Origin: Ostreococcus lucimarinus
Taxonomy: Eukaryota
Reading direction: 5' to 3' (one strand)
Assembly (NCBI GenBank): GCA_000092065.1
Contig: CP000592.1
DNA length: 64,000 nt
A model generated the notes under the pieces. That model was not told the origin of the DNA and did no database searches. It was given only the letters and a program-made list of their open reading frames with translations. Made by a program: the position numbers and the translations under genes. Shown here piece by piece: positions 2,177-56,032 of the stretch; position 1 is the first letter of the stretch; each line of letters opens with the position of its first letter.

Positions 2177-4898
2177 TCAGTGTCTGTGGCAGACGTTGTA
2201 TTGAGCCAACGTTTGCAACATGTTGACCACGTCGTCGGTGTCGTCGAGATACGCAGGCGCCTTGCTCGGTTTTTGACCTATGGTTGATGTGTAAATGGAC
2301 GCGCCGGCGTAGAGCGGGAGCTGCGCGTGCGTGTTGACGGCGACGAACATGTCCTCGTCCGAACGGTCGTCGCCAACGGCGAGAACGAAATCGGCGACGT
2401 CAGCGGAAGATTGCGTGTCTAAAAGTTGGTTTATCACCAGACCTTTGTGCACGCCCTTGGGTTTGATCTCGACGGTGCCATTTCCGGCGATGACGTCCAC
2501 GGGGTCGCCGTGTAACACGCTCTCGAGGTGATCGAGAAGTTCCTTGGCTTGCCAAGCCCCAAAATCGGGATCGGCGTCTCGATAGTGCCACACGCAAGAA
2601 CTTTCTTTGGACTGGATGAACGAACCGTCCGTCGCTTCGGCATACTGCTCTAAAATTGGTAGGACGGTATCTTTCCACTCGAGCACGCTGTTGTCCGTGC
2701 CACTCGGAGCAAGCTCGTTCCACGCCACGTCTGATCCGCGGCGGAACCAGTATCCGTGCTCAGCCACCATGCAAAGACCAGGAATATTACCGAACCACTT
2801 GTCTAAAGTCTCGCGCTCGCGTCCAGACACGATACACACCTCGTTTGCGTCGTCATTTACGAGGACGGTGAGGAGGGACAATAAATGCGCCGTCGGCGGC
2901 TGCGCAAAGGATGCCAGTGGTACTAGCGTACCGTCGTAATCGATCACGAGCTTTCGACGAGTCGCCTTGAGGTAGTTGGCCACCACACCGGCCGTGTCGA
3001 GCTTTCGGAACGTCGAACTGAGATGCACGACACGGAAGTTCAACCCGAAACCCAAACCGTAGCATCGGTTGCTCTGAGCCTTCTCTGTCACGCGCTGAAG
3101 CTCGGCGAGGCAAGATTGCGCCCAGAAGCCGACGTGGTGCTCGCTAACGTAGCGCCAGTGCTTCTCATGACGAGCTTCATGCTCGTGACCGCTCATTTGA
3201 AGTGCTTTGTACATGGAATCCGCGACATCCTCTTCGTGCCACGGGTTGACGCGAAGCGCCCCTGAGAGCGACGGCGAACACCCGGTGAACTCAGAAATAA
3301 TCAAAGAGGATTGTCGTGGCAACGAGAAACCATCGGACGTGCCCTGGGACTCGTCATTCGGACCCTGTCTACAAGTTATGTACTCGTATGGCGCAAGGTT
3401 CATACCATCGCGCGTGGCCGTGACCACAGCGATGTCCGCGACTGAGTACAACGCGATGCGCTCGTGCAGCGGCACGGGCCTCACTTCAAACTTCACAACG
3501 TTGACACCATTCTTTGCATACTTGTCATTTATTCTCGCCACCATCGAATCCACGGTCGCTCGCAAATCATCAATGTCCCGCCCACTTCCGCGAGGTGGAT
3601 TACACACTTGATACAGCACAATTTGCTCGGCGATTTCTGGGTGTTCGTCGAGCATGCGTTCAAACGCCGCGATTTTCTGATCGATTCCCTTGAACTCGTC
3701 GAAATCATCGAGACCAAGCAACATTTTGCGCCCCGCAATTTCGGTGACGAGTTCTTTCCGACGATCCTTGCACATTTGTGCGTCTAAAACATCTCGCAAA
3801 CGCGACGTCTTCACGCCAGTGGGACAAATCTTAACCGACACGAGTCTGCCGAAGTTGTCGATGACGAGCGACCCGCGCTCCATCCTATGATTTAATCCGA
3901 GCAACCGCGTGCAGCACGACAAAAAGTGTCGAGCGTAATCGAACGTATGAAAACCGACAAAGTCGGCATTTAAAAGTCCGCGCAGGATTAAATCTCGGTT
4001 CGGCGTCGTTCTGAAGATTTCGCTCGACGGAAACGGGCAGTGCAAAAAGAAACCACACTTGACGGCGTTGAAGCGTTTACGCAGAAACGTCGGCAAAAGC
4101 ATCAAGTGGTAATCGTGCACCCACACTTGATCGTCATCACTGCACACCACTTCCATCAGCTTATCCGCGAAACGCTTATTCGCCGCGATGTACGCCTGCC
4201 ACTGATGTTTTTGAAATCGCGAATCCAACGGCGACATCGGCAAGACGTAGTGCATCAGAGGCCACAGATACTGTTTACAGAACCCCTTATAAAAGTTCTC
4301 CTTGGTATCTTCGGGCAAAAACACCGGCACCGCATCAAATCTCGCCTCTAAATCGTTCGCCACCGCCTCTTGCAACTCAAACGGCACTTGCATCGGCAAC
4401 TGTCCGACGTTTATCACCGCGTCGTACTGCCCGTTCGCCTCCGCTCCTTCCCGACATTGATCGTAAATGCTATCCCCATCCTTTTCGAACGCATACTTGT
4501 GTCCGTACGGTTTCCCCGCCTCCGCGTCCTCTCGCATCTTCAGCGGTAACGAATTACTGACGATGAAGACGCGTTCGACGCGCGGTTCGCTCGCCCCGCT
4601 CGCCCCGCTGAGATCGGCGCTCGACCCGCCGATCGTGTTCGGCTTCCCATCGTTCGCGTCCTCCCCGATCAGCGCTGTTCGTTTCGCAGACCACATCGCG
4701 CGCATCGTCAGTCCGTCGTTCTCGCGCGACGCCCGCGCGCGCGCGCGCCGCGAGCGCGTCTCGACCGCTCGAATCACCAAAAAACCCAAGACTCCGATTC
4801 CGCGTTTCGTCGCTTCGCGCGCGTCGATCGACGCCGCGCGCGCGATTCGCACCTTGTAAGTCCGTGACGGATGAGTTGTTATTCGCCGTGCGGCGCAT
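2177..4898 (-). CDS. TPS: Trehalose-6-phosphate synthase/phosphatase (class II TPS; GT20 synthase domain plus HAD phosphatase domain), probably two exons
   Basis: The 953-aa track ORF has a GT20 synthase domain (..WVHDYHLMLLPTFLRKRF..., LGLDDFDEFKGI) and a C-terminal TPP-like domain (KLVIDYDGTLVP...IVSGRERETL). The Arg-rich N-terminus of the track ORF is spurious. Proposed model: exon 1 at 4853-4898 (ATG CGC CGC ACG... encoding MRRTANNNSSVTDLQ), GTGCGA donor, intron 4675-4852 with ACTGAC 30 nt before the ACAG acceptor, exon 2 at 2177-4674 (ALIGEDANDGKPNTIGG...). The alternative intronless start is ATG at 4705. Confidence 0.8.
4675..4852 (-). other. Putative spliceosomal intron 1 of the TPS gene (178 nt)
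   Basis: Donor GTGCGA directly after exon 1 in phase 1. ACTGAC motif at 4712-4707, 30 nt upstream of AG (4676-4675). Splicing restores the TPS frame (G+CG gives Ala). Confidence 0.5.
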
Positions 4899-10359: not shown

Positions 10360-10435
10360 CATGGTCAAAAGTGCCAAAGACCTTCCGACGCCCGCGGCGC
10401 GATCCGTCTTTACGCGACGCCCTCGAACGCTCGCC

Positions 10436-11516
10436 ATGGACAAGGTACGGCGCGCGCCGAGCGCGTCGAAGCGCACGTCTTCATCGACATCGCGCGCGTT
10501 CGCGATCGACTCGATCGACGCGCGCGACGCGCGCGACATCGACGCGACGCCCCGCATCGCGTAGGGTTTCGCGATCGACCACGACGCCGACGCGCGAAGA
10601 CTGACGCCGACGCGCGCGCGACGCACCCGCAGGTTATCGTCATCGACGCCAAGGGACACCTTTTCGGGCGATTGGCCTCGATCGTCTCCAAGCAGTTGTT
10701 GCAAGGCCAGCACGTGGTGCGTATCGATTTCGGCGACGCGCGCGCGTTCGCGTTGGGCGCGCGATCATCGCGTCGCGCGCGCGCACCGTGGAGGCGACGG
10801 AGCGCGACGCGATGGCGAGCGATGGATATGGTGGTATTCATGCGATGATTCGCGCGCGCGTTGGACGTCGACAAGACGCAGATGAGGCGCGGGACGATGG
10901 GATGTCGGTCGCATCGGTGGTGGCGGATTAGGGCTTTGACGCGCGAGACGCGCGAACGACGAACGCGAAGACTGACGAAAGCACGCGCGATGGTTTGCGT
11001 AACGAATAGGTTGTGGTTCGCACCGAGGGTATCTGCATGTCCGGTGGTATGGTTCGTCGTCGCATGGCGCACGACCGCTACAAGAACAAGAGGATGAACA
11101 CGAACCCGAAGAAGGGTCCGTACCACTACACGTCGCCGTCTCGACTCTTCTGGAAGACGGTTCGCGGTATGCTTCCGCACAAGACTGTGCGTGGTGCGGC
11201 TGCTTTCGAACGCTTCAAGGCGTACGAAGGCATCCCGGCGCCGTACGACAAGGTTAAGCGCGCGGTCGTTCCGGAAGCGCTCAAGGTGTTGCGCCTCGGT
11301 GAGGGGCACCGTTTCTGCGTGCTCGGCGACTTCTGCGAACAAATCGGGTGGAAGCATGGTGCGATCGTGAAGGAGCTCGAGGCGAAGCGCCAAACTGCGG
11401 CGTCTGAGTACTGGGCGCAGAAGAAGGAGGCTAACTCCAAGTTTGCCGCGGCCAAGGCTGCGGCGAATGCGCAACTCGGCGATTTGCAACAGTTGATCGA
11501 AGCCACCGGGTATTAG
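10436..11516 (+). CDS. RPL13A: 60S ribosomal protein L13a (uL13), three exons
   Basis: Exon 1 at 10436-10444 (ATG GAC AAG, donor GTACGG). Intron 1 at 10445-10632 (ACTGAC at 10600-10605, acceptor CGCAG). Exon 2 at 10633-10716 ([28 protein letters not shown]). Intron 2 at 10717-11009 (donor GTGCGT, ACTGAC at 10970-10975, acceptor AATAG). Exon 3 at 11010-11516 (VVVRTEGICMSGG...RMNTNPKKGPYHYTSPSRLFWKTVRGMLPHKTVRG...). The spliced protein, [38 protein letters not shown]..., matches the eukaryotic uL13 N-terminus residue for residue, including the four consecutive Val. Confidence 0.85.
10445..10632 (+). other. RPL13a intron 1 (188 nt)
   Basis: GTACGG donor directly after ATGGACAAG. ACTGAC 25 nt before the CAG acceptor. 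Phase 0. Confidence 0.65.
10717..11009 (+). other. RPL13a intron 2 (293 nt)
   Basis: GTGCGT donor after ...CAC GTG. ACTGAC 32 nt before the ATAG acceptor. Joins HV to VVVRTEG in frame. Confidence 0.7.
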
Positions 11517-22825: not shown

Positions 22826-25312
22826 TCACAAATTGCGCGGCGCGGTCGACGTAGGACAGAACGGGTTCGGTCTGTGTGTCATTCGAAAGTGGATCTCTCT
22901 CGCGCGCGAGCGCGGGCTGAGCGAGTCGACGGAACGAGGGACGCCGGGAGGTCGCGCCGTGAGCGCAGACGACGGCTTACACTTCGGACGTTTCGTCGTC
23001 GACTGAGTCGCAGCACTTCGTTGTACGGGGTTATCGTCTTCTGAATCAGAGATCACGATGACGTCGGGTTCGCGTTTCCTCTTACCCGGCGCCCTCGCGC
23101 CGCCCGCGCCGCAAAATTCCGCGGCTTCGCGAATCGCTCGTCGATATTCTTCCTCTTCATCGAGTTCAGAGTCCTCGCCGTCGTCGTCAGTTTTCACCAA
23201 CTCGATCGTTTCTTTCGACTCCACGTTCGGTGTTTCGGCGACGGTGACGCCGTTGACTTTCGTCGCCGTGCTCGTCGGACTTCCGTCGTCGCCGTCGAGT
23301 TTCCAAGTGACGCTGTAACCCGAAATCACCGGCGCGTACCATCTCAGTTGCGATGCATCTAACGGGGGCGCGCCTGCATCTTCGCGAGGACGCCAATGTC
23401 CGTCTTTGTTTATCTCTATTCGGCTCACCTTGCTCAACGCTCGTTCTGTAACTTTATCCACGCAGTACTTGATGAAGCTGTCGACGCGCAAATCCGACGG
23501 ACCGCCCTTTTTACCACACTCCGGACAGCACCACTTTCGACTCACCGTGTTGAGTTGCAAAAAGCTCTCCGCGTCGAACGCATGCAAGCCAACGCACGAA
23601 GATAATCTCGCCGGATTGCGACAAACTTGCCCACTAATTGGACAACGTAGCGAGACCAACGCGACGTCTTCCATGATGACTTCGTCGTCCTTCTCGGTGA
23701 ATCCGAGATGTTTGAGTGCATTTCGTAGCGCCACACCCACGGAGGCGGCTTTTGGTATAGACGCCGCGACTTCTTCGAGCGTGCGCTTTCGTACGATACG
23801 CAAAGCGATCATGAAAGCGCCGCGTCTATCTCGATGAAACATGCGGAAATGATTTGAACCGCTTCGCAAGCGAGACGCGGGAATGCGCACCGAGGGATCT
23901 CTCGTCGACTTGGTCACGCTCTTCACCGTCGATCGCTTGACCACGGTCAACGTGTGATCGTTCGCGGTGAGGTATACGTCTAATGGCCACTGCATGCGTT
24001 CCTTCACATCGTCGTTTTGTAACATGCACACCGCTTGCAGCTCGAACTCGTCCTCGCGTTGTAAAAAGTGCAAATCCGTGGCGGACAAAAAGAAGCACTG
24101 CTGGAACGTCTTCATCGGCACGACTTTTTGTGGTTTCACTAAATCACCTGGAGGATACGATGGATTGTCCGCCGATGAGATCATTTCAAACATGGGATCA
24201 GCCTTCTCCAGCCGCTGATAGAACGTGCGCTCCTCCGGCGTCGCTCCGGGAAGCGTAGCCGCGGCTTTCGACGGCGCGTTGGCGCGCGCCTCTGGCGAAG
24301 ATACTTTTTCAGCCTTTTTCATCGGCGATGCGCGCGCCATGACTTCGCGTCGAAACATTTCTCTACTTAAATTTTCCATCCCAGCGTTCTCGTCAGCCGT
24401 GGGCGGTGGACCCGCCGTCGCCGTCGAACCCGTCGCCGGAGGCGCCGTCGCCGTCGAACCCGTCGCGCGCCTGTCTTCAGCACACTTCGGCTTTGATCGC
24501 CAGTACGGAAACATCGACGCATTCTCAGGCGCTCTGACGTACGCTAAAGCTCTCCGGACCTCGCCGTGAATCCTATCCGGCGTCAACGAGTGCACTTGTT
24601 CTATCGGAGACTGTTGCCCAAACAGGCTGTACAACCTATCCATCGCCCGCGCGTTCGCCCTGGGATCGTTCGACCAATGCCCCTCACCGCAGAACCGCGC
24701 CGGTGGCAACATCGGACAATCCATCGCATCGATCCACTGCCGTTTACTCAGCGGCAATTCCTCGTACACCGCGTCGTACAACAGGTACGCTCGCTCCGCC
24801 CTCGACGTCTCCGTCGAGTAATATCCGTCGACGCTCGAATTCGCCAACGCGTACCGCTCCTTCCAAACCCTCCCCGCGCTCGCCTGATCGCTCGCCGTCG
24901 CGAACGATTCCTCCTCGCCCGCCTTGACGCACACGAACGCGTCCTCGAACGCGCATCCCGCCCCGTCGCGCACCATCCTCAGCGTCGCTCGCGCCGCGTC
25001 GCCTCGCCGCGTCGTCCCTCTCGCGAATCCTCTCCCCATCTGCCCCACGATCGCCCTCACGAGCGCCGCCTTCGTCCCGCTCTTCCGCAGGCTCATCGCG
25101 TCGCACATCGCGCGCAGTTCCTCGCACTGCATCGACGCGAGCGCCCTCGCGACGTCCTCGCGCGCGTCGCGTCGCAGGACGCACGCGAGGACATCCTTTC
25201 CCGTCGCTCGCTCAAACTCCGCGATCGAGCACGGCGCGAGCGGGTGGTGGAGCGGGCGCATCGCGTCGGAGCGCGACTCGCGCGCGCGCGCGTCGTCGGG
25301 CGGCATCGGCAT
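22826..25312 (-). CDS. SP-RING (MIZ-type) SUMO E3 ligase of the PIAS/SIZ family, with an N-terminal SAP domain
   Basis: SAP-like LRAMCDAMSLRKSGTKAALVRAI. SP-RING SLRCPISGQVCRNPARLSSCVGLHAFDAESFLQLNTVSRKWCCPECGK. Acidic/Ser-rich C-terminus. 828 aa. ATG at 25312. Confidence 0.8.
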   Translation of the reverse strand: MPMPPDDARARESRSDAMRPLHHPLAPCSIAEFERATGKDVLACVLRRDAREDVARALASMQCEELRAMCDAMSLRKSGTKAALVRAIVGQMGRGFARGTTRRGDAARATLRMVRDGAGCAFEDAFVCVKAGEEESFATASDQASAGRVWKERYALANSSVDGYYSTETSRAERAYLLYDAVYEELPLSKRQWIDAMDCPMLPPARFCGEGHWSNDPRANARAMDRLYSLFGQQSPIEQVHSLTPDRIHGEVRRALAYVRAPENASMFPYWRSKPKCAEDRRATGSTATAPPATGSTATAGPPPTADENAGMENLSREMFRREVMARASPMKKAEKVSSPEARANAPSKAAATLPGATPEERTFYQRLEKADPMFEMISSADNPSYPPGDLVKPQKVVPMKTFQQCFFLSATDLHFLQREDEFELQAVCMLQNDDVKERMQWPLDVYLTANDHTLTVVKRSTVKSVTKSTRDPSVRIPASRLRSGSNHFRMFHRDRRGAFMIALRIVRKRTLEEVAASIPKAASVGVALRNALKHLGFTEKDDEVIMEDVALVSLRCPISGQVCRNPARLSSCVGLHAFDAESFLQLNTVSRKWCCPECGKKGGPSDLRVDSFIKYCVDKVTERALSKVSRIEINKDGHWRPREDAGAPPLDASQLRWYAPVISGYSVTWKLDGDDGSPTSTATKVNGVTVAETPNVESKETIELVKTDDDGEDSELDEEEEYRRAIREAAEFCGAGGARAPGKRKREPDVIVISDSEDDNPVQRSAATQSTTKRPKCKPSSALTARPPGVPRSVDSLSPRSRAREIHFRMTHRPNPFCPTSTAPRNL

Positions 25313-25676: not shown

Positions 25677-28600
25677 ATGATGGCGACGACGACGACGACG
25701 GCGACGGCGACGCGAGCGACGCGGGCGCGGAGCCGCGGGAACGGGCGACGCGATGGGAACGTCGGACGACGACGATGCGTGGTGCGCGCGGAGGCGAGGA
25801 CGGGAGCGACGCGCGAGGAGGCGGGGAGAGACGGGGGACGCGCGCGACGGGCGACGACGAAGCGCGCGACGAGAGGGCGGGACGCGCGCGTCTGGGCGAG
25901 CGAACAGGACGTGGAACCGTTGAAACCGATGACGGCGGATGAGGCGGAGGCGATGGCGAGGGAGATTAGCAGGCTTCGAGAGGAGCAGCGGGAGGGGGCG
26001 CGGCGATTGAAGACGGCGGAGGCGGACAGCGCGGAGGGCGAGGCGCAGGCGAAAGCCATGGCTGAACAGGCGGTGTTAGCGACGGAGGCGTACGAGAAGG
26101 ACGATGAGTTAGCCACGAGCGCGATGAAGAGCGCGCAAGAGGCGAGCAAGGCGGTGGTGGAAGCTGTGGCGCTTTCGGACGCCGTCGCCGAACGTATGCG
26201 GCGAGTGGAAGAAGCCGTGGTGCAGGCGCGATTGGTGCCCTCCGAAGACGGCGCGGAACAGAGTGATGACGTCCTGAGTGTGGTCAAGTTTAAGCGCCCG
26301 AACAAAGAGTCCGATGCGGAGACGTTGGCGCGAAAGATGGGCGTGCTTCCCGAGACGTCGTGGTGGGACGAGGACGATTTGAGCCTCGCCGAGGCGAGCG
26401 AACGCTCAAAGTCGGCGTTCGAGGCTGCGGATTTTGTTCGTAAAGAAACGCAGGCGGAATTGACGAAGCGCGAGGCGTTCGCAGAGGAGTGCGCGACGAA
26501 GGCGCAGAGATCGTTGCAGTTGTCGCTGAGCGCGCACGAGAGCGCGGATCAAGCCATGGAGAAGGTTGCGTCAAAGATGCAAGCCATGGTGGCGCTGAGC
26601 GAGAGCGTGGGGGCTCTCGAGAAGGAGATCAACGATAAACAAGCGTTAATTGATGGCGTCAAGTTCGACGAAGCGTCCGTAACCGAAATGATGTCGGCGA
26701 AGACCAAGGCAGACATCAAGGCGGAGGCGGTGCAAGAACTCGCGGTCAAGCGCGCGGAAAAGGTGGAAGAGAAGGAAGCGCAAGAAGCTGCGGAGGGCAC
26801 GGACGACCAATCGGTGAAAAAGTCGAGTAAGTTCATGCCCGCGGGCTACTTCTCCACTGCCGAACAAGATGGACCGACGGAAGAGACGATCATTAAAAAG
26901 ATTTTCACCGGCTTGTTGTTGCTGGGCACCGCGACGTTGATGCTTCCTATGCCGAAATGCAAGGCGGTGCGTGCGCAGATTGGAACTTCGCTCGTCCGAG
27001 CAGGCAGCGCGGCGAAATCAACAACGGGAGTGTTGCGACGAGGTGCGGCTGACATCATCGAACGCGTCGTTCCGGCGAGTGAGCGCGAATTGGCTGCGCA
27101 CGCGGCCCACGAAGCCGAAGAAACAGGCATGTCAGATTTACTTTGGCTCTTGTTCACGTCCGTGCTCGCGGTGACAATCGTGAGCAAAATTCCGGGCGGT
27201 TCACCCGTGTTAGGGTTCCTCGTCGGTGGTGCCCTCGTCGGTCCGTTCGGTCTCGGAATCATCCAGCACGTCGAACAAGTCAAGGTGCTCGCCGAATTCG
27301 GCGTCGTTTTCCTTCTCTTCAACATCGGTCTCGAGCTTTCGTATGATCGTCTCGTGTCCATGGCCAAGTATATTTTCGGACTTGGCTCGTCGCAGATGAT
27401 GCTGAGCACCGCAGTTGGTGCCGCTGTCGCCGTTGCGTGCGGGTTGGCCATACCTCCAGCGGTGATTGTTGGCTTGGGACTCGCGTTTTCTTCCACCGCC
27501 GTTGCGTTGCAAGTGCTCGCCGACAGAGGCGAGTCCGCGAGTCGCCACGGTCGCGCGACGTTTTCCGTGTTGCTTTTTCAAGATTTAACTGTTGTTTTGG
27601 TCTTCATGCTCGTTCCGTTATTGGCTGGTCCCGATAGCGGGAGTCTTACTGCCATCGGCGGCTCGTTACTCAAAGCCGTCGTAAAGACGGCTGCCGCCAT
27701 CGTTTCCATCATTGGTCTCGGTCGCGTGGTTTTACGACCAGTTTTCGATCGCGTCGCAAAATTGCGCCAAGCCGAGCTCATGAGTGCGACGACGTTGTTT
27801 GTTGCGCTCGGCACGTCGCTCTTGACGCAGTCGCTAGGATTATCCATGGCGCTCGGCGCGTTTTTGGCTGGCTTACTTTTGGCGGAGACGGAATTTCATT
27901 TACAAGTCGAAAACGATATCGCGCCGTTCAGAGGGCTTCTGCTCGGTTTATTCTTCATGACAGTCGGGATGACCATCGACCCGATGACGTTCACGCAGAG
28001 TGCGGGCAACATAGTGAGCATGATGGCGGCGATCTTAATCGGCAAAATCGCCGTCGTCGCCGCCGTCGGTCCCATGTTCGGGTTGTCGCTCTTGAATTGT
28101 ATTCGCGCCGGTATGTACATCGGTCCTGGCGGAGAGTTTGCCTTCGTGACTTTTGCCGAAGCGGTTCGTGTCGGTTTATTCAGCCCTGATCTCGCGACGC
28201 AGCTCAACTTGGCTGTGGTGCTTACGATGGCCATCACGCCCTACCTCGCCGAGGTCGGTAACAGCATGAAGGACGTGTGGAAGAGTGGTAACGTCGCTAC
28301 GCTGCAACCAAAGGAAAACGAAGTGGACGACTTGAAAGGTCACGTCATTTTGGCCGGGTACGGCCGTAACGGCAAGATTATCGGCGAGATTCTCAGTGCG
28401 AATATGATTCCATTCGTAGCGTTGGACGTGAATCCAGAAATCGTCAGCGAAGGTCGCGCCGCCGATCAAAACGTATACTTCGGCGATGCGGGCTCGCCTG
28501 AAGTGCTCAGAGCCATCGGCGCCGCTCGCGCGTCTTGTGCTATCGTCGCCCTCAGTTCGCCGGCCGCGAACTATCGCGCCGTGTGGTCGTTGACGAAGAA

Positions 28601-51215: not shown

Positions 51216-53309
51216 TCACGGCTTACAGGCGGTGATTTGCGCGTATAAGTCGTGTGATTTCGTGTCACACGCGCACGTCATGTCGGTCGCGAACAAAAGA
51301 CGCAGAGCGACGAGGTTCTTGGTGGAGATGACGCGCGAAGCGACGACGTCGGCGACGAGCGAGGCGACGACGGCGTCGCTCGCTGCGTGAGGTTCAAATT
51401 TTTCCGTCACGAAGTCAGCCGCGGTACGGGCTTCTTGGAAAAATCGATCGGCGATTCCGGCGAAGACTGTGACGTCGGAGACAGCCTCGTCGGCGTCGGT
51501 GAGCTCACCTCGAAAGTGACTCAGATTGGCCTCGATGGACGCTTTGTAGTCGTCGTAGTGCGCGGGCGGCGGAAGTTCGACGGTTTGAAACGTGCTGAAT
51601 CGCTGCCAAAAGCGCAGATCTTCGCCACTAAACGCAGTAACACACGGTCGTAGCTTGCCACTGTCGAGGAGTGCGGCGAAGGTGAACCGAAGCGCCGAAT
51701 ACATCGAGAGCTTTTGTTGCTCGGCCAAGAAGCAAAGTTGCGTCTGGATCGTCTGCGTTGACGGTGTCATCGCCTTGCGCCTCAGCGTGACGACACGAAG
51801 CCGCTGCAAATAGTGCATGTAGTAGTACACCATCGCGAGCTCGTGGGGCAAGTACAAGTCGAGCGAAAACCCGAGCTCGAGATGCCTGAGTTCGACGTAG
51901 CACGTCAAGTGTTCCGCCCAGGCAATGCAAGGCGCCTGAAGCGATCGCAAAGTCTCGACTTTAGCCCGATCCTCGTCGCTCGTCGCTAACGCGTCGTCTT
52001 GTGCCGCGTCCAGGGCGTCCGCAGCGATTTGCAGATGACTGAACTCACCGAGCGACCGCCTGAGTACGCGCCTGAAGCGCGCCCGGTTGACGCAAAACGA
52101 TCGAACCACAACCGTCAACGGCTGCACGCACTCGTCGATGAAAGCGTCAACCGCGTCCTTGGGGTGCGCGAACGACGTTTCGAGCGTCTTCGTCGTTACA
52201 CCAGCGAACGTCCAAACGGAATGAAGTCCAACGTGACCGAAGTGCCATCCGCACAGCTCTTTCTCGTGCATCAACTCGGCGGCTGCGAGTCCGAGCGCGA
52301 TGGCTCCCGGTCGACGAGTCTGGAGTCGTTCTAAACACTCCAGGACCTCTTCAATCGTCGGCGCTTCCTTACGAGCACGAAATTTGAACACCTCGGCGGC
52401 GACGAGCACGTCGTCGATCTCTCTTTCGAAATATTCAAACGCTCGTCGAGTGCTCAAAAAGTGCACCTCCCTCGGCGGCGCGCCACCCAACATGTGCAAA
52501 CTCAACCCTTTCGAAAAGCTTCCCGCGTTGGGATCCCAATCCAGCGCGTCTTCATCGTCGACGACGTCTTCGCTATAATAATTTCGCATCTCTTTCAAAC
52601 GCGCCTTGGCCGCGTTCGCGTGTTGTCGCGCCTCGTTTCTCGCATCCGTCCCCGCCCCGATGGCTCCCGTCAACGTCTTCATCATCAAGTGATGTGCCCT
52701 CCTAAATTCTAACCGCGCGACGACGGCTTCGACGTCGCGATCACCCCCACTATCCTCCATCTTCATCAGCGCGCTCGCGAGCTCGATCAAAACCTCGTCG
52801 TCCGCCTCCGCCGTCGCCCACGCTTCGCGCCCGGCGACTTCTCCAAAGTCCCCGAGCACCGCGAAATCCTCTTCCTCGTACACGTCTCCCGTTTTCACCG
52901 CGTGCTGCGCCATCGACGCGCTCGCCAGCGTCGCGCGCGTGAACGCTCGCAGCGCCGGCGTGGCGTCGTCCAAGTGTCCCGTTCGATGTCCCGCGCAGTG
53001 CGCGTTCGTCCACACCGTCGTCGCCGCCGCGTAGCCCTTTCGAAACGTCCCTTCCGCGCACAGCATCGCGTCCAGCTCGCGCACCAGATCGCGGCCGGTG
53101 ATGTCTTTCGGTGCGCGTCCGCTGGCGAGGAGCTGGGCGAGCGTGAGGCGAGAACCGTCCCGCACGGCGCCGGCATCCATCTTCAGGTCGCCGATGTCGA
53201 GCGCGCTCATGGCGTCGAATAGGGAGAAATTGGCGTCGTGCACGAGCTCTCCCGAGGTGAGAACGTTCGATAGCTCATTTATGATGGGATCGAGCGGGAT
53301 CCAGGACAT
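51216..53309 (-). CDS. NAA35: N-alpha-acetyltransferase 35, NatC auxiliary subunit (Mak10/NAA35)
   Basis: The N-terminus, MSWIPLDPIINELSNVLTSGELVHDANFSLFDAMSALDIGDLKMDAGA, matches the conserved Mak10 N-terminal motif (...GEL..D..F.LF.AMSA.E.MDPKMD.G). The length (697 aa) is typical. ATG at 53309. The upstream 40 codons of the track ORF are not coding. Confidence 0.65.
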   Translation of the reverse strand: MSWIPLDPIINELSNVLTSGELVHDANFSLFDAMSALDIGDLKMDAGAVRDGSRLTLAQLLASGRAPKDITGRDLVRELDAMLCAEGTFRKGYAAATTVWTNAHCAGHRTGHLDDATPALRAFTRATLASASMAQHAVKTGDVYEEEDFAVLGDFGEVAGREAWATAEADDEVLIELASALMKMEDSGGDRDVEAVVARLEFRRAHHLMMKTLTGAIGAGTDARNEARQHANAAKARLKEMRNYYSEDVVDDEDALDWDPNAGSFSKGLSLHMLGGAPPREVHFLSTRRAFEYFEREIDDVLVAAEVFKFRARKEAPTIEEVLECLERLQTRRPGAIALGLAAAELMHEKELCGWHFGHVGLHSVWTFAGVTTKTLETSFAHPKDAVDAFIDECVQPLTVVVRSFCVNRARFRRVLRRSLGEFSHLQIAADALDAAQDDALATSDEDRAKVETLRSLQAPCIAWAEHLTCYVELRHLELGFSLDLYLPHELAMVYYYMHYLQRLRVVTLRRKAMTPSTQTIQTQLCFLAEQQKLSMYSALRFTFAALLDSGKLRPCVTAFSGEDLRFWQRFSTFQTVELPPPAHYDDYKASIEANLSHFRGELTDADEAVSDVTVFAGIADRFFQEARTAADFVTEKFEPHAASDAVVASLVADVVASRVISTKNLVALRLLFATDMTCACDTKSHDLYAQITACKP

Positions 53310-53594
53310 CGCTTCGCGCGGATGGCGCCGAGAGGCGCGAGGTGAGGTCGACGCGAATCGCGGCGAAGACGGCGAGCGCGCGAGAGAGAGAGCGATGGGC
53401 GAGCGACGCGTGAGACGAATGCGCGTCAATGATAACTACAACATACGTGTTCTCTCTACCGGCCGCGGACGCGATCGACGACGAACGGGATGGGGTTCGA
53501 AACAGACAAACTCCCTTCTCGTTCGCGCGCGTCGCGCCTCGCGGCGCTTCTCTTCTCCTTCGCGACCAGACTAACAAACCAACTCAGTAATCGC

Positions 53595-54424
53595 TTACTT
53601 GAGCGGGATGAACTTGGAACCGGCGGCGAGACCAGCGCGACCGTGCGACACCGGTCTGTACGTGATCGCGTACTCACCGAGGTACGTCCCAATCATCTCC
53701 GGCTTGATTTCAACCGTGTTGAACACCTTGCCGTTGTACACGCCGACGACGGAGCCAACCATCTCCGGGATGATGGGCATGTTTCTCAAGTGCGTGCGCA
53801 CGGTTTCCGGCTTCTCCATACCCGTCACCGCCGCCTTCGCCTTACGAAGCTTCGCGACGAGCGTCTTGTGCTTGCGCACCAAACCGTTACGCTTGAATCG
53901 ACGACGAATGCGCGCGTTGAAGAGCGTCACGAGCTTGTCGTTTTTCAATTCAAGCAACCCCTCGAGATCGATCCCGCGGTACGAAAACTTCTTGTACGGG
54001 TTCTTCTTACGCGGAACCCCGACGAGGGCGTCTTCTTCAGCCGTGGACTGCGCGCGTCGCACACGTTCGCGCTCTCGTCAGTCTCTCTCGTCGCGTCGTC
54101 GTTAGGGCTTTGGCCCATCGCCCCCCCCTCGCGCGTCCCTCGCGCGCCCCCCCCCCACGCCGCCGCCGCCCGCGCCGTCGCTCGAGCGCGCCGTCTCAAA
54201 ACATCCCCCACGTCCTCGCGCGCGCGTCCGCGCCCCTCTCCGCGCGCGCGCGTCGTCCCGTCGCGATCGCGCGTCGCCCCGCGATCGGCGAAACCCCACG
54301 ACGGGCGTCACCGTCGTCGCCGTCGGCTCGCGCGTTCGCGCGCGCGCGCGCCCCGTCGTCCCGCGTCCCGCGCGCGTCGAAATCGTTCGCGTCGTCCGCG
54401 CCGTCGAGCGTCGCGACGCACCAT
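53595..54424 (-). CDS. RPS15: 40S ribosomal protein S15 (uS19), two exons with an ATG-only first exon
   Basis: Exon 2 (53595-54047) encodes [34 protein letters not shown]...[28 protein letters not shown]...[62 protein letters not shown]...KFIPLK*, a full-length match to eukaryotic uS19. There is no in-frame ATG upstream in the exon (the track start is a GTG). A minus-strand ATG at 54424-54422 is followed directly by a GTGCGT donor. The intron at 54048-54421 has ACTGAC 27 nt before the GCGCAG acceptor, and the junction gives M-STAEED... Confidence 0.8.
54048..54421 (-). other. RPS15 intron (374 nt) following the ATG-only exon 1
   Basis: Donor GTGCGT immediately after ATG. ACTGAC at 54082-54077. 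Acceptor CAG at 54050-54048. Contains a long polypurine (G-rich) tract on the coding strand (54121-54160). Confidence 0.5.
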
Positions 54425-54718
54425 GTTCGCGTCCGCGTCGCGTCGTGGAAAGACGGCGCGGCGCTCGCGGCGCGCGCGCGCGCGCGCGTTGGTTTTACGA
54501 TCGACCCACGCGTTCGCGATGATGGGCTTCGATCGCGCTTCAACGCGCATCCGGCGCGTCGTGCGTGCGCGCGAAGGTCTGGTGGCGTGCGTCGCGGGTC
54601 GATCGATCGCGCGCGTCGCGATCGAACCTCGCCGCGAGGTTCGATCGAGTCGCGCGACCGGCGCGTCGTCGATCGAGCGGTGCGAACCGACCGGACGACG
54701 TCACACCGACGCGCGACG

Positions 54719-56032
54719 ATGGCGACGACGGCGCGCGCGGCGACGACGCGCGCGGCGACGACGCGCGCGACGACGAAGACGACGACGCGCGCGACGACGA
54801 CGACGCGACGCGCGCGCGCGACGAACGAGGGCGAGACGCGCGCGGCGACGGGCGACGACGAAGACGACGCTCGAGCGCGAGAGCGCGAGAGCGCGAGGCG
54901 ACGGGACGACGCGTTCTCGTCGTTCGAGCGCGCGCTGGCGGACGCGGCGTCGTTCGGGTCGTCGAGCTCGTCGGGACGGGGGTGGACGCGCGTGGACGAC
55001 GCGTGGGCGCTGGCGCCGCGCGCGGGCGTCGAGGCCAAGGCGGTGGTGCACTTTTGCGGCGGCGCGTTCGTGGGAGCGTCGCCGCAGGTGACGTACGGGG
55101 AGTTTTGCGAGCGATTGGTGGAGCGGGGAGAGGTGGTGGTGATCGCGACGCCCGTGCAGCTGGGGTTGGATCACCTGCGCGTCGCGGACGAGGCGTGGCA
55201 AAAGTACGAGCGCGCGTCGAGGGCGCTGAGGAAGACGATGGACGGGTTCGACGATCTGCCGGTGTACGGCGTCGGACACTCGTTGGGGGCGTTGGTGACC
55301 GTGCTCATCGGGTCGAGATACGAAACGAAGCGACGGGGGAACGTGTTGATGTCGTTTAATAACAAGCCGGCGACGGATGCGATTCCGCTCTTCGCCGAGC
55401 TCTTCGCCCCGGGATTGCAAGGACTTTCGCCCATTCTCGACGCCGCGCAAAAGTCGCCGCTGCGCGCGTTGCAGCGAAACGCCGACGCGCAGCTTCGTGA
55501 GCTCGCGCCGCCTTTGGTCAAGGAGCTTTTACCCATCCTGGACACTCTCGAGCCGGTGATTTTGGAAGTCGCCGACGGGCGCGCCGAGTTCACGCCGACG
55601 CCCGAGGAATCGGCGAAATTGGTGAGGAAGTACTACGCCGTGCGCAAGAATTTGTTGATCAAGTTTACCGACGACACCATCGACGAGACCAGCGCGCTCG
55701 CCGCCACGCTCGCGGGCGCGGTGGCGGCGGAGGATATCGATCTCACCGTGCGCACGCGAAAAGGCGACCACGTCTTCCCGCTCTGGCGCGACACCGGCAT
55801 CGACGTTCCGGACGAAGTCTACGAGGCCGCGGAGCAAGGCGGCGAAATTCTCGCCGCGTTCGGGGACGCGTTCGGGATCAAAGCCGATAGCTCGCCGCTC
55901 GGTGTACTCCGAGAGGGCTTCGACCGCGCGCGCACGCAAGCCAAGGAGGCGCGCTCGGCGCCGGGCGTCGACGAAAACCGCATCCTCATGAACGCCCTCG
56001 TCGACGACGTCGTGAATTGGATGGCGATTTAG
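54719..56032 (+). CDS. DUF1350 family protein (chloroplast-type alpha/beta-hydrolase-like) with a Thr/Arg/Ala-rich transit peptide
   Basis: The C-terminal 300 aa match DUF1350 (VVHFCGGAFVGASPQVTYGEFCERLVERGEVVVIATP...LPVYGVGHSLGALVTVLIG...). Proposed start is ATG at 54719 (MATTARAATTRAATTRATTKTTTRATTTTRRARAT...). The upstream 200 codons of the track ORF are Arg/Pro junk spanning the RPS15 promoter. Confidence 0.65.
   Translation: MATTARAATTRAATTRATTKTTTRATTTTRRARATNEGETRAATGDDEDDARARERESARRRDDAFSSFERALADAASFGSSSSSGRGWTRVDDAWALAPRAGVEAKAVVHFCGGAFVGASPQVTYGEFCERLVERGEVVVIATPVQLGLDHLRVADEAWQKYERASRALRKTMDGFDDLPVYGVGHSLGALVTVLIGSRYETKRRGNVLMSFNNKPATDAIPLFAELFAPGLQGLSPILDAAQKSPLRALQRNADAQLRELAPPLVKELLPILDTLEPVILEVADGRAEFTPTPEESAKLVRKYYAVRKNLLIKFTDDTIDETSALAATLAGAVAAEDIDLTVRTRKGDHVFPLWRDTGIDVPDEVYEAAEQGGEILAAFGDAFGIKADSSPLGVLREGFDRARTQAKEARSAPGVDENRILMNALVDDVVNWMAI

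Follow-up and report, generated by a model that had tools for sequence, protein, structure and literature searches.

A predicted start-codon intron in the RPS15 (uS19) gene of Ostreococcus lucimarinus, with the ATG as the only coding sequence of exon 1

In Ostreococcus lucimarinus CCE9901, RPS15, the gene for ribosomal protein uS19, lies on the minus strand of the 64,000-nucleotide (nt) stretch of contig CP000592.1 (assembly GCA_000092065.1) analysed here, which we call the window. Based on this stretch and on the corresponding loci of related algae, we consider it highly probable (about 93%) that RPS15 is composed of a short exon 1 ending with the ATG, a 374-nt intron and a second coding exon, which in this species would be spliced into the reading frame of a 151-amino-acid (aa) uS19. 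The predicted exon 1 is made up of a 29-nt 5′ untranslated region (UTR; 54453-54425) and the ATG at 54424-54422, which is its sole coding sequence and has an A at position -3. The coordinates of the gene and of the other features discussed are collected in Table 1.

Exon 2 opens with the codons TCC ACG GCT GAA GAA GAC, and its frame runs uninterrupted to the TAA at 53597-53595. When the ATG is joined to position 54047, codon 2 is TCC (Ser) and the product has 151 aa. A preliminary description of the window, made from the sequence alone, had stated that no in-frame ATG precedes residue 70 and that the listed open reading frame (ORF) begins at a GTG; both statements hold, the first internal Met of the product being residue 78 and the mechanically called ORF spanning 53595-54062 from such a codon. 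Further 5′, the uS19 frame is closed by the TGA at 54080-54078, ten codons before exon 2 and itself preceded by a TAA at 54104-54102, and the number of ATGs between this TGA and exon 2 is zero. A contiguous AUG start for uS19 is therefore impossible. Reading without splicing from ATG 54424 is equally short-lived: it terminates after 38 codons, because the intron length of 374 nt equals 3n+2.

The signals at both ends of the predicted intron are those of the species. Among expressed sequence tag (EST)-confirmed introns outside chromosome 2, Irimia and Roy reported for O. lucimarinus the atypical 5′ consensus 5′-GTGCGTG-3′, together with the branch motif ACTGAC in 87% of the introns and its extended form GACTGACG in 66.5% (PMC2483917). 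The preliminary description placed GTGCGT directly after the minus-strand ATG at 54424-54422 and counted 374 nt to a GCGCAG acceptor. We confirmed both, the donor being GTGCGTC at 54421-54415 and the intron 54421-54048. The predicted branch A is separated from the last intron base by 30 nt, and the same distance is 28-34 nt in four other clear introns of the window.

Between 55200 and 54040, the minus strand contains four ATGs, located at 54550, 54424, 54204 and 54118. The ATG at 54550 is in frame with that at 54424, the one at 54204 reads ATGTTTTGA, and the one at 54118 is out of frame and, at 68 nt, too close to the acceptor. Approximately 0.15% of the ATGs in the window directly precede GTGCGY; the probability that at least one of four upstream ATGs carries this sequence is therefore ~0.006. 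A second ATGGTGCGY, at 24968-24976 on the minus strand, was considered as another start-codon intron and rejected as a chance match, since it represents MVR codons inside an 828-aa ORF.

The spliced RPS15 product scored 172.9 bits against TIGR01025 (uS19_arch; cutoff, 139), and the precomputed Pfam domain on its homologues is PF00203. Its best matches are the uS19 chains of plant 80S ribosomes (E ~1e-54), and residues 2-151 align with the uS19 chains of 140-154 aa from solved plant, animal and fungal 80S ribosomes. As the product spans these chains, it has a conventional N-terminus and leaves no space for additional introns. The preliminary description had anticipated such an N-terminus, and the in-frame, full-length product, the TIGR01025 score and the 80S-chain alignment agree with it. 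The marks of a start-codon intron are found together at RPS15: an ATG that is last in its exon and is followed by a GT donor, splice signals typical of the host, a full-length in-frame product, and a position common to orthologues.

To follow this position across the Mamiellales, RPS15 homologues were collected by protein search, and their DNA was then retrieved and compared. A phase-0 acceptor immediately before the first conserved uS19 codon was identified in all seven lineages, i.e., the window and six others (Table 1). The question raised earlier, whether related picoalgae share a phase-0 intron right after the ATG, is thereby answered positively for 6/6 other lineages. At the population level, 11 environmental O. 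lucimarinus-type contigs have the same RPS15 structure as the window, and the 35 nt 5′ of ATG 54424 are identical in all of them (11/11). Population variants differ at 0-4 positions in exon 2, and two natural variants (L019 and L021) have a 1-nt indel in the intron, which leaves it 373 nt long. Exon 2 of the window and that of the Ostreococcus clade L005 share 88% identity, with codon-compatible gaps only; identity is 65% in the intron, which has dozens of indels, and 58% in the upstream region. Given this difference, the intron interval evolves as non-coding DNA apart from a few short blocks.

Within the 64-kb window the intron matched only itself, which gives no sign of an introner or repeat origin; a recent insertion is also argued against by the fact that seven lineages have it at the orthologous position, with a sequence that diverges among them. 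No small nucleolar RNA or other structured RNA was detected in it by Rfam matches at E<=1, nor in the six orthologous loci at E<=0.01.

Direct evidence of splicing comes from relatives. In the sister Ostreococcus clade L026-L029, a 627-nt ENA contig (L030) carries an Illumina adapter remnant at its 5′ end and is cDNA-like. After the adapter it reads ...TCGACGCAGCGAACGGCGAGA ATG TCC GCC GAA GAA GAA, and its two alignment blocks on the genomic sequence L026 (2077-2111 and 2515-3072) leave out the 404-nt intron. In Micromonas pusilla, the cDNA-like contig L017 aligns with the genomic L016 at 100% identity, also in two blocks (2941-3004 and 3470-4067). In both contigs, the ATG is joined directly to codon 2. 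Additionally, two metatranscriptome-derived proteins run through the same junction: P0006, ...LYSTQRTARM/SAEEEALVG, is the in-frame translation of the L026 5′ UTR into it, and P0023, ...RAPPNDTM/NEEDAL, is that of the L007 5′ UTR. We take their source, designated 'merc', to be a protein-level assembly of Tara metatranscriptomes. For O. lucimarinus itself, the published EST study states that its EST set lacks the shortest ribosomal protein models, and S15 is not mentioned in its supplements (PMC2367439).

The same transcripts point to the start of transcription. A putative pyrimidine-rich initiator of the TCT/terminal oligopyrimidine (TOP)-like kind, CCG/TCTTTCC, is located 32 nt before the RPS15 ATG, and the spacing of CCGTCTTTAC before the ATG at 10436 of uL13, the other ribosomal protein gene in the window, is the same. 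The homologous sequence CCG/TCTCTATTCG in L026 coincides with the 5′ beginning of both L030 and P0006. The leading 'MG' of P0006 would fit a template-switch oligo that ends in ...ATGGG. RPS15 transcription most likely starts near 54453, 29 nt before the ATG. In the proposed expression route, minus-strand transcription would begin at this initiator and produce an exon 1 of ~32 nt, consisting of a short 5′ UTR with the AUG as its final three bases. Splicing would then excise the canonical, U2-type intron (54421-54048; 374 nt) through the species-typical arrangement GTGCGT...GACTGACG-N-CAG and join the AUG to codon 2 (TCC, Ser), giving the 151-aa uS19. A possible reason for the retention of the intron is that it keeps regulatory elements apart and perhaps contains some itself.

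Table 1. Features of RPS15 and uL13 in the window, and RPS15 start junctions in other Mamiellales. A slash marks an exon-intron boundary, a junction in the protein or, in initiators, the putative transcription start.
Feature	Coordinates	Strand	Remarks
RPS15 upstream ATG	54548..54550	minus	in frame with ATG 54424; most likely 5′ of the transcription start
RPS15 putative initiator CCGTCTTTCC	54447..54456	minus	CCG/TCTTTCC; pyrimidine TCT/TOP-like; predicted start T 54453
RPS15 exon 1	54422..54453	minus	~32 nt; 5′ boundary predicted
RPS15 intron 1	54048..54421	minus	374 nt; phase 0, between codons 1 and 2; 78% G+C
RPS15 5′ splice site GTGCGTC	54415..54421	minus	6/7 positions equal to published GTGCGTG
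RPS15 conserved intron block TGGGGTTTCGCCGATCGC	54281..54298	minus	resembles reverse complement of plant telo-box
RPS15 TGGGCC + AAAGCCCTAA	54102..54117	minus	resembles plant 'site II' + telo-box-like motif
RPS15 branch site GACTGACG	54076..54083	minus	exact, 8/8 against published extended motif; branch A 54078
RPS15 decoy GTG	54060..54062	minus	inside intron, between branch site and acceptor; prokaryote-style ORF start
RPS15 3′ splice site CAG	54048..54050	minus	acceptor GCGCAG ending at 54048; first AG >10 nt past branch site
RPS15 exon 2, coding sequence	53595..54047	minus	150 codons, STAEED...IPLK, + stop TAA 53597-53595
uL13 putative initiator CCG/TCTTTAC	10404-10411	plus	ATG 10436; 29-nt UTR, same length as predicted for RPS15
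uL13 intron 1	10445-10632	plus	GTACGG...GACTGACG...CAG
uL13 exon 2	10633-10716	plus	
uL13 intron 2	10717-11009	plus	GTGCGT...GACTGACG...TAG
uL13 exon 3	ends 11516	plus	
RPS15, Ostreococcus clade L005/L006			ATG/GTGCGC; intron 417 nt
RPS15, Ostreococcus clade L026-L029			ATG/GTGCGT; intron 404 nt
RPS15, Micromonas commoda-type L007			ATG/GTACGC; intron 493 nt
RPS15, Micromonas commoda-type L011			ATG/GTAAGC; intron 505 nt
RPS15, Bathycoccus prasinos L015			ATG/GTACGT; intron 518 nt; junction M/PKDTSEED
RPS15, Micromonas pusilla CCMP1545 L016			ATG/GTGCGC; intron 467 nt; junction M/GGEEDAL

Several points weigh against an exon 1 with the ATG as its only codon. The transcripts that show splicing are those of relatives, and the exact 27-mer spanning the 5′ UTR, the ATG and exon 2 of O. 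lucimarinus had no match when scanned against the contigs of JGI metagenomes. The transcription start is placed by homology only, and the +4 base after splicing is U, compared with the G favoured in many plants. Finally, the ATG at 54550 is followed in frame, with no intervening stop, by that at 54424, and it would be usable if transcription began further upstream. Transcription from 5′ of 54550 with the same donor and acceptor, giving a 193-aa protein, is nevertheless very improbable in our view, as is the product it entails, with a 42-residue arginine-rich N-terminal extension (MRVEARSKPIIANAW...ADANM-STAEED). A public Bathycoccus model does have such an extension. In Ostreococcus, however, it lacks conservation: at this place, L026 contains in-frame stops without any upstream ATG, and the sequence of L005 is unrelated. 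The cDNA and metatranscriptome 5′ ends of the sister clade lie ~28 nt before the ATG, the uS19 chains of solved ribosomes, at 140-154 aa, do not contain an extension, and the 193-aa product was not found in the protein collection described below. The divergent DUF1350 gene starts at 54719, so only 169 nt beyond 54550 would have to hold both promoters. Based on this lack of conservation and on the disagreement with the 5′ ends in relatives, ATG 54550 was rejected as the start codon.

The intron might also receive exons other than the one ending at ATG 54424, through a different upstream exon, an alternative donor or alternative splicing into 54048, with the ATG-only exon as a minor form. The intron is long for the O. 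lucimarinus genome and contains other GT dinucleotides; yet, among the four upstream ATGs, only 54424 is followed by a donor, no other GTGCGY occurs within 1 kb 5′ of the branch site, and the ATG-only junction is present in both spliced cDNA-like contigs (2/2) and in both metatranscriptome proteins (2/2) of relatives. We therefore regard such an arrangement as extremely improbable. Practically negligible, in our judgement, is the probability that the mRNA stays unspliced and is translated from the non-AUG codon at GTG 54062 into the 155-aa product of ORF callers. This ORF exists, and metagenome gene catalogues record it, but a textbook intron has its acceptor region where the five extra codons lie, and these do not appear in the spliced transcripts of relatives. 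The residues they encode vary from relative to relative, as does even the start codon: MRRAQ in the window corresponds to MFLAQ, MCLLAQ and MLFLTLPHYFAPEQ (...FAPEQ) elsewhere. As the sister-clade equivalents are different codons and residues, GTG 54062 is not a conserved start. Moreover, AUG 54424 would come first on an unspliced mRNA, in a frame that ends too early to reach uS19. We know of no precedent for routine GUG initiation of an abundant eukaryotic ribosomal protein. The ATG at 54424, spliced directly to codon 2, remains the start that we prefer.

The remark in the preliminary description that start-codon-only first exons are an annotation trap is borne out by the public records for this gene. 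In a collection of ~15 billion proteins, the exact sequence of the correct 151-aa O. lucimarinus uS19 is not present, whereas the RefSeq proteins of the two flanking genes are included. Look-ups of the spliced product itself and of ten guessed variants (without the Met, shortened, or extended from the upstream ATG) gave none under the O. lucimarinus name. For this gene, the same collection holds only the 155-aa GTG-start ORF on 308 contigs and similar calls, along with a 74-aa fragment beginning at Met78, present only as a metagenome ORF; in marine metagenome catalogues, the gene is recorded only as ORFs that start with GTG or TTG.

Other Mamiellales show the same trap in different forms. In the Micromonas locus L011 (3001-3015), an in-frame decoy ATG is located 12 nt before the acceptor (ATGGCCGTTGAACAG/AAT), and prokaryotic gene callers therefore yield a plausible 151-aa protein, MAVEQNEEDAL.... 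This sequence has been deposited from a metagenome-assembled genome as '30S ribosomal protein S19 [Acidimicrobiaceae bacterium]' (HBV24747.1), which indicates that the Acidimicrobiaceae bin is contaminated with eukaryotic sequence. The 251-aa uS19 model of Bathycoccus prasinos (OZ116814.1; L015 3001-3297) has the correct ATG/GTACGT junction and begins at the in-frame ATG lying farthest upstream; the ~98 residues gained in this way resemble translated promoter and 5′ UTR. The annotated gene range in M. pusilla, 3001-3923, starts exactly at ATG/GT and encodes 151 aa, and the M. commoda RCC299 model XP_002507596.1 is a 147-aa protein beginning MSEEDAL....

Apart from its length and position, the RPS15 intron contains short conserved blocks. 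The block TGGGGTTTCGCCGATCGC is nearly invariant in three Ostreococcus clades. In the same clades, the sequence TGGGGTTT(T)CGC(C)GATCGCG is located ~125-140 nt past the donor, and a second block, CAAAGCCCTA, ~65-80 nt before the acceptor, where it is preceded by TGGGCC in the window. Nearly all ribosomal protein genes of Arabidopsis and rice have 5′ regions marked by telo boxes (AAACCCTA) in combination with site II elements, TGGGCY (PMC3022908). The Ostreococcus arrangement resembles this plant module in having telomere-like motifs just past the transcription start of a ribosomal protein gene and TGGGCC directly before AAAGCCCTAA. It differs in that AAAGCCCTAA and TGGGGTTT are one base off AAACCCTA and are located in the intron instead of the 5′ UTR.

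Similar elements occur in the second ribosomal protein gene of the window, uL13/RPL13a (10404-11516, plus strand), which has a near-minimal first coding exon, ATG GAC AAG. Its intron 1 contains TAGGGTTTCGCGATCG at 10562-10577 (plus strand), in the same sense orientation as the RPS15 block, and the motif [T/A]GGGTTTCGC(C)GATCG is present in sense orientation in intron 1 of both genes. The sequence AAAGCCCTA has two copies in the 64 kb, compared with 0.06 expected; one is in the RPS15 intron and the other in uL13 intron 2 (10929-10937). An exact TAGGGTTT was identified in uL13 intron 1 and, at a similar offset, in the RPS15 introns of Micromonas; the RPS15 intron of Bathycoccus does not contain it. 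A further CCGTCTTTAC, at 27690 on the minus strand with an ATG 35 nt 3′ of it, was considered as a third ribosomal-type start and rejected as a chance match, being antisense within a 1141-aa plus-strand ORF.

Based on two genes, the resemblance of these motifs to telo-box and site II elements is suggestive. The pattern is present in both ribosomal protein genes of the window, and its motifs are kept in three Ostreococcus clades and in Micromonas. It is conceivable, though we think it unlikely, that the RPS15 start-codon intron belongs to a regulatory architecture common to the ribosomal protein genes of the Mamiellophyceae. Such an architecture, proposed here tentatively, would place a CCG/TCTTT initiator exactly 29 nt 5′ of the AUG and combine it with a first coding exon of minimal size and an intron 1 that carries telomere-repeat-like motifs. 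With similar reserve, we suggest that the intron motifs [T/A]GGGTTTCGCGATCG and AAAGCCCTAA, the latter beside TGGGCC, might act as downstream promoter or enhancer elements. If this were true, the plant telo-box/site II regulon would reach back to the base of the green lineage.

RPS15 is flanked in the window by two ORFs identical to O. lucimarinus CCE9901 proteins: XP_001420852.1, Mak10/NAA35-like, at 51219-53309 on the minus strand, and XP_001420690.1, with DUF1350, at 54719-56029 on the plus strand. The Ostreococcus arrangement (window 51216-56032) has RPS15 in tandem with Mak10/NAA35 and head-to-head with DUF1350. In Bathycoccus (L015) and M. pusilla (L016), the same three neighbours are present with RPS15 inverted and head-to-head with Mak10. 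This difference in orientation is a single-gene inversion in situ. RPS15 and the DUF1350 gene are separated by a divergent promoter region of ~265 nt, which contains a near-perfect palindrome at 54610-54656, with 23-nt arms that are 91% complementary, a 1-nt spacer and the core CGATCGAACCTCGC-G-GCGAGGTTCGATCG. The surrounding interval, 54600-54663, gave weak miRNA-like Rfam matches on both strands, and the palindrome is not present in the Ostreococcus clades L005 or L026.

The M. commoda-type RPS15 genes (L007-L014) are found outside the Mak10-DUF1350 interval, in a different, low-GC neighbourhood (48-50%), with a tRNA methyltransferase or a Na/H exchanger beside them. Their C-terminus, HGRAGLAGGKFIPLK, resembles that of Ostreococcus and Bathycoccus, whereas the syntenic M. 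pusilla copy has the canonical HGRPGIGASASARFIPLK. Location and C-terminus may be signs that the gene was relocated or replaced within Micromonas. In another Ostreococcus-like lineage, represented by the protein cluster P0025, the ORF calls start in unrelated sequence and join uS19 at ...RFKRDGL, which suggests an additional RPS15 intron at approximately residue 52.

Start-codon introns are enriched in ribosomal protein genes (Nielsen and Wernersson 2006, PMC1626468). Of 73 human ribosomal protein genes, 20 have an exon 1 that ends exactly with the ATG, according to the portion of Yoshihama et al. (2002) quoted in that paper, whose lists of start-codon introns include chicken S15 (CHKRIG) and the rice putative 40S S15 AAP44665.1. 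Similarly, 29% of mammalian ribosomal protein genes have the AUG at the 3′ end of exon 1, and Table 2 of Perry (2005) classifies the rpS15 AUG of human, mouse and chicken as 'E1e', exon 1's extreme 3′ end (PMC554972). O. lucimarinus RPS15 resembles the mammalian genes in its phase-0 intron after the ATG, in the short non-coding part of exon 1 that follows a pyrimidine-rich start region, and in encoding a short, lysine-rich, highly conserved and highly expressed protein. It differs from them, although not in kind, in the rigid GTGCGTG and GACTGACG that replace GTRAGT and a degenerate branch site. Family and intron position are shared with RPS15 (rig) of human, mouse and chicken and with rice S15, whose intron sequences are unrelated. 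Among the Mamiellales, the M. pusilla CCMP1545 orthologue MICPUCDRAFT_30685 (151 aa) has been annotated from ATG/GTGCGC with the product M-GGEEDAL, in agreement with the spliced contig. The M. commoda RCC299 orthologue XP_002507596.1 (147 aa) is likewise public, whereas the O. lucimarinus equivalent of 151 aa is not in the collection.

Start-codon introns, the presence of one in RPS15, and annotated Micromonas orthologues that have it are all already known. What is new is local: a reference genome of a picoalga whose correct 151-aa uS19 appears to be missing from public protein sets. O. lucimarinus RPS15 is a real but ordinary case of a known gene structure, and its value is mainly for annotation: allowing an ATG-only coding exon 5′ of the rigid GTGCGT...GACTGACG...CAG intron would mend such miscalls in the Mamiellophyceae. 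For the view that the RPS15 start-codon intron is very old or has been repeatedly favoured, the gene adds one more lineage and leaves current views unchanged.

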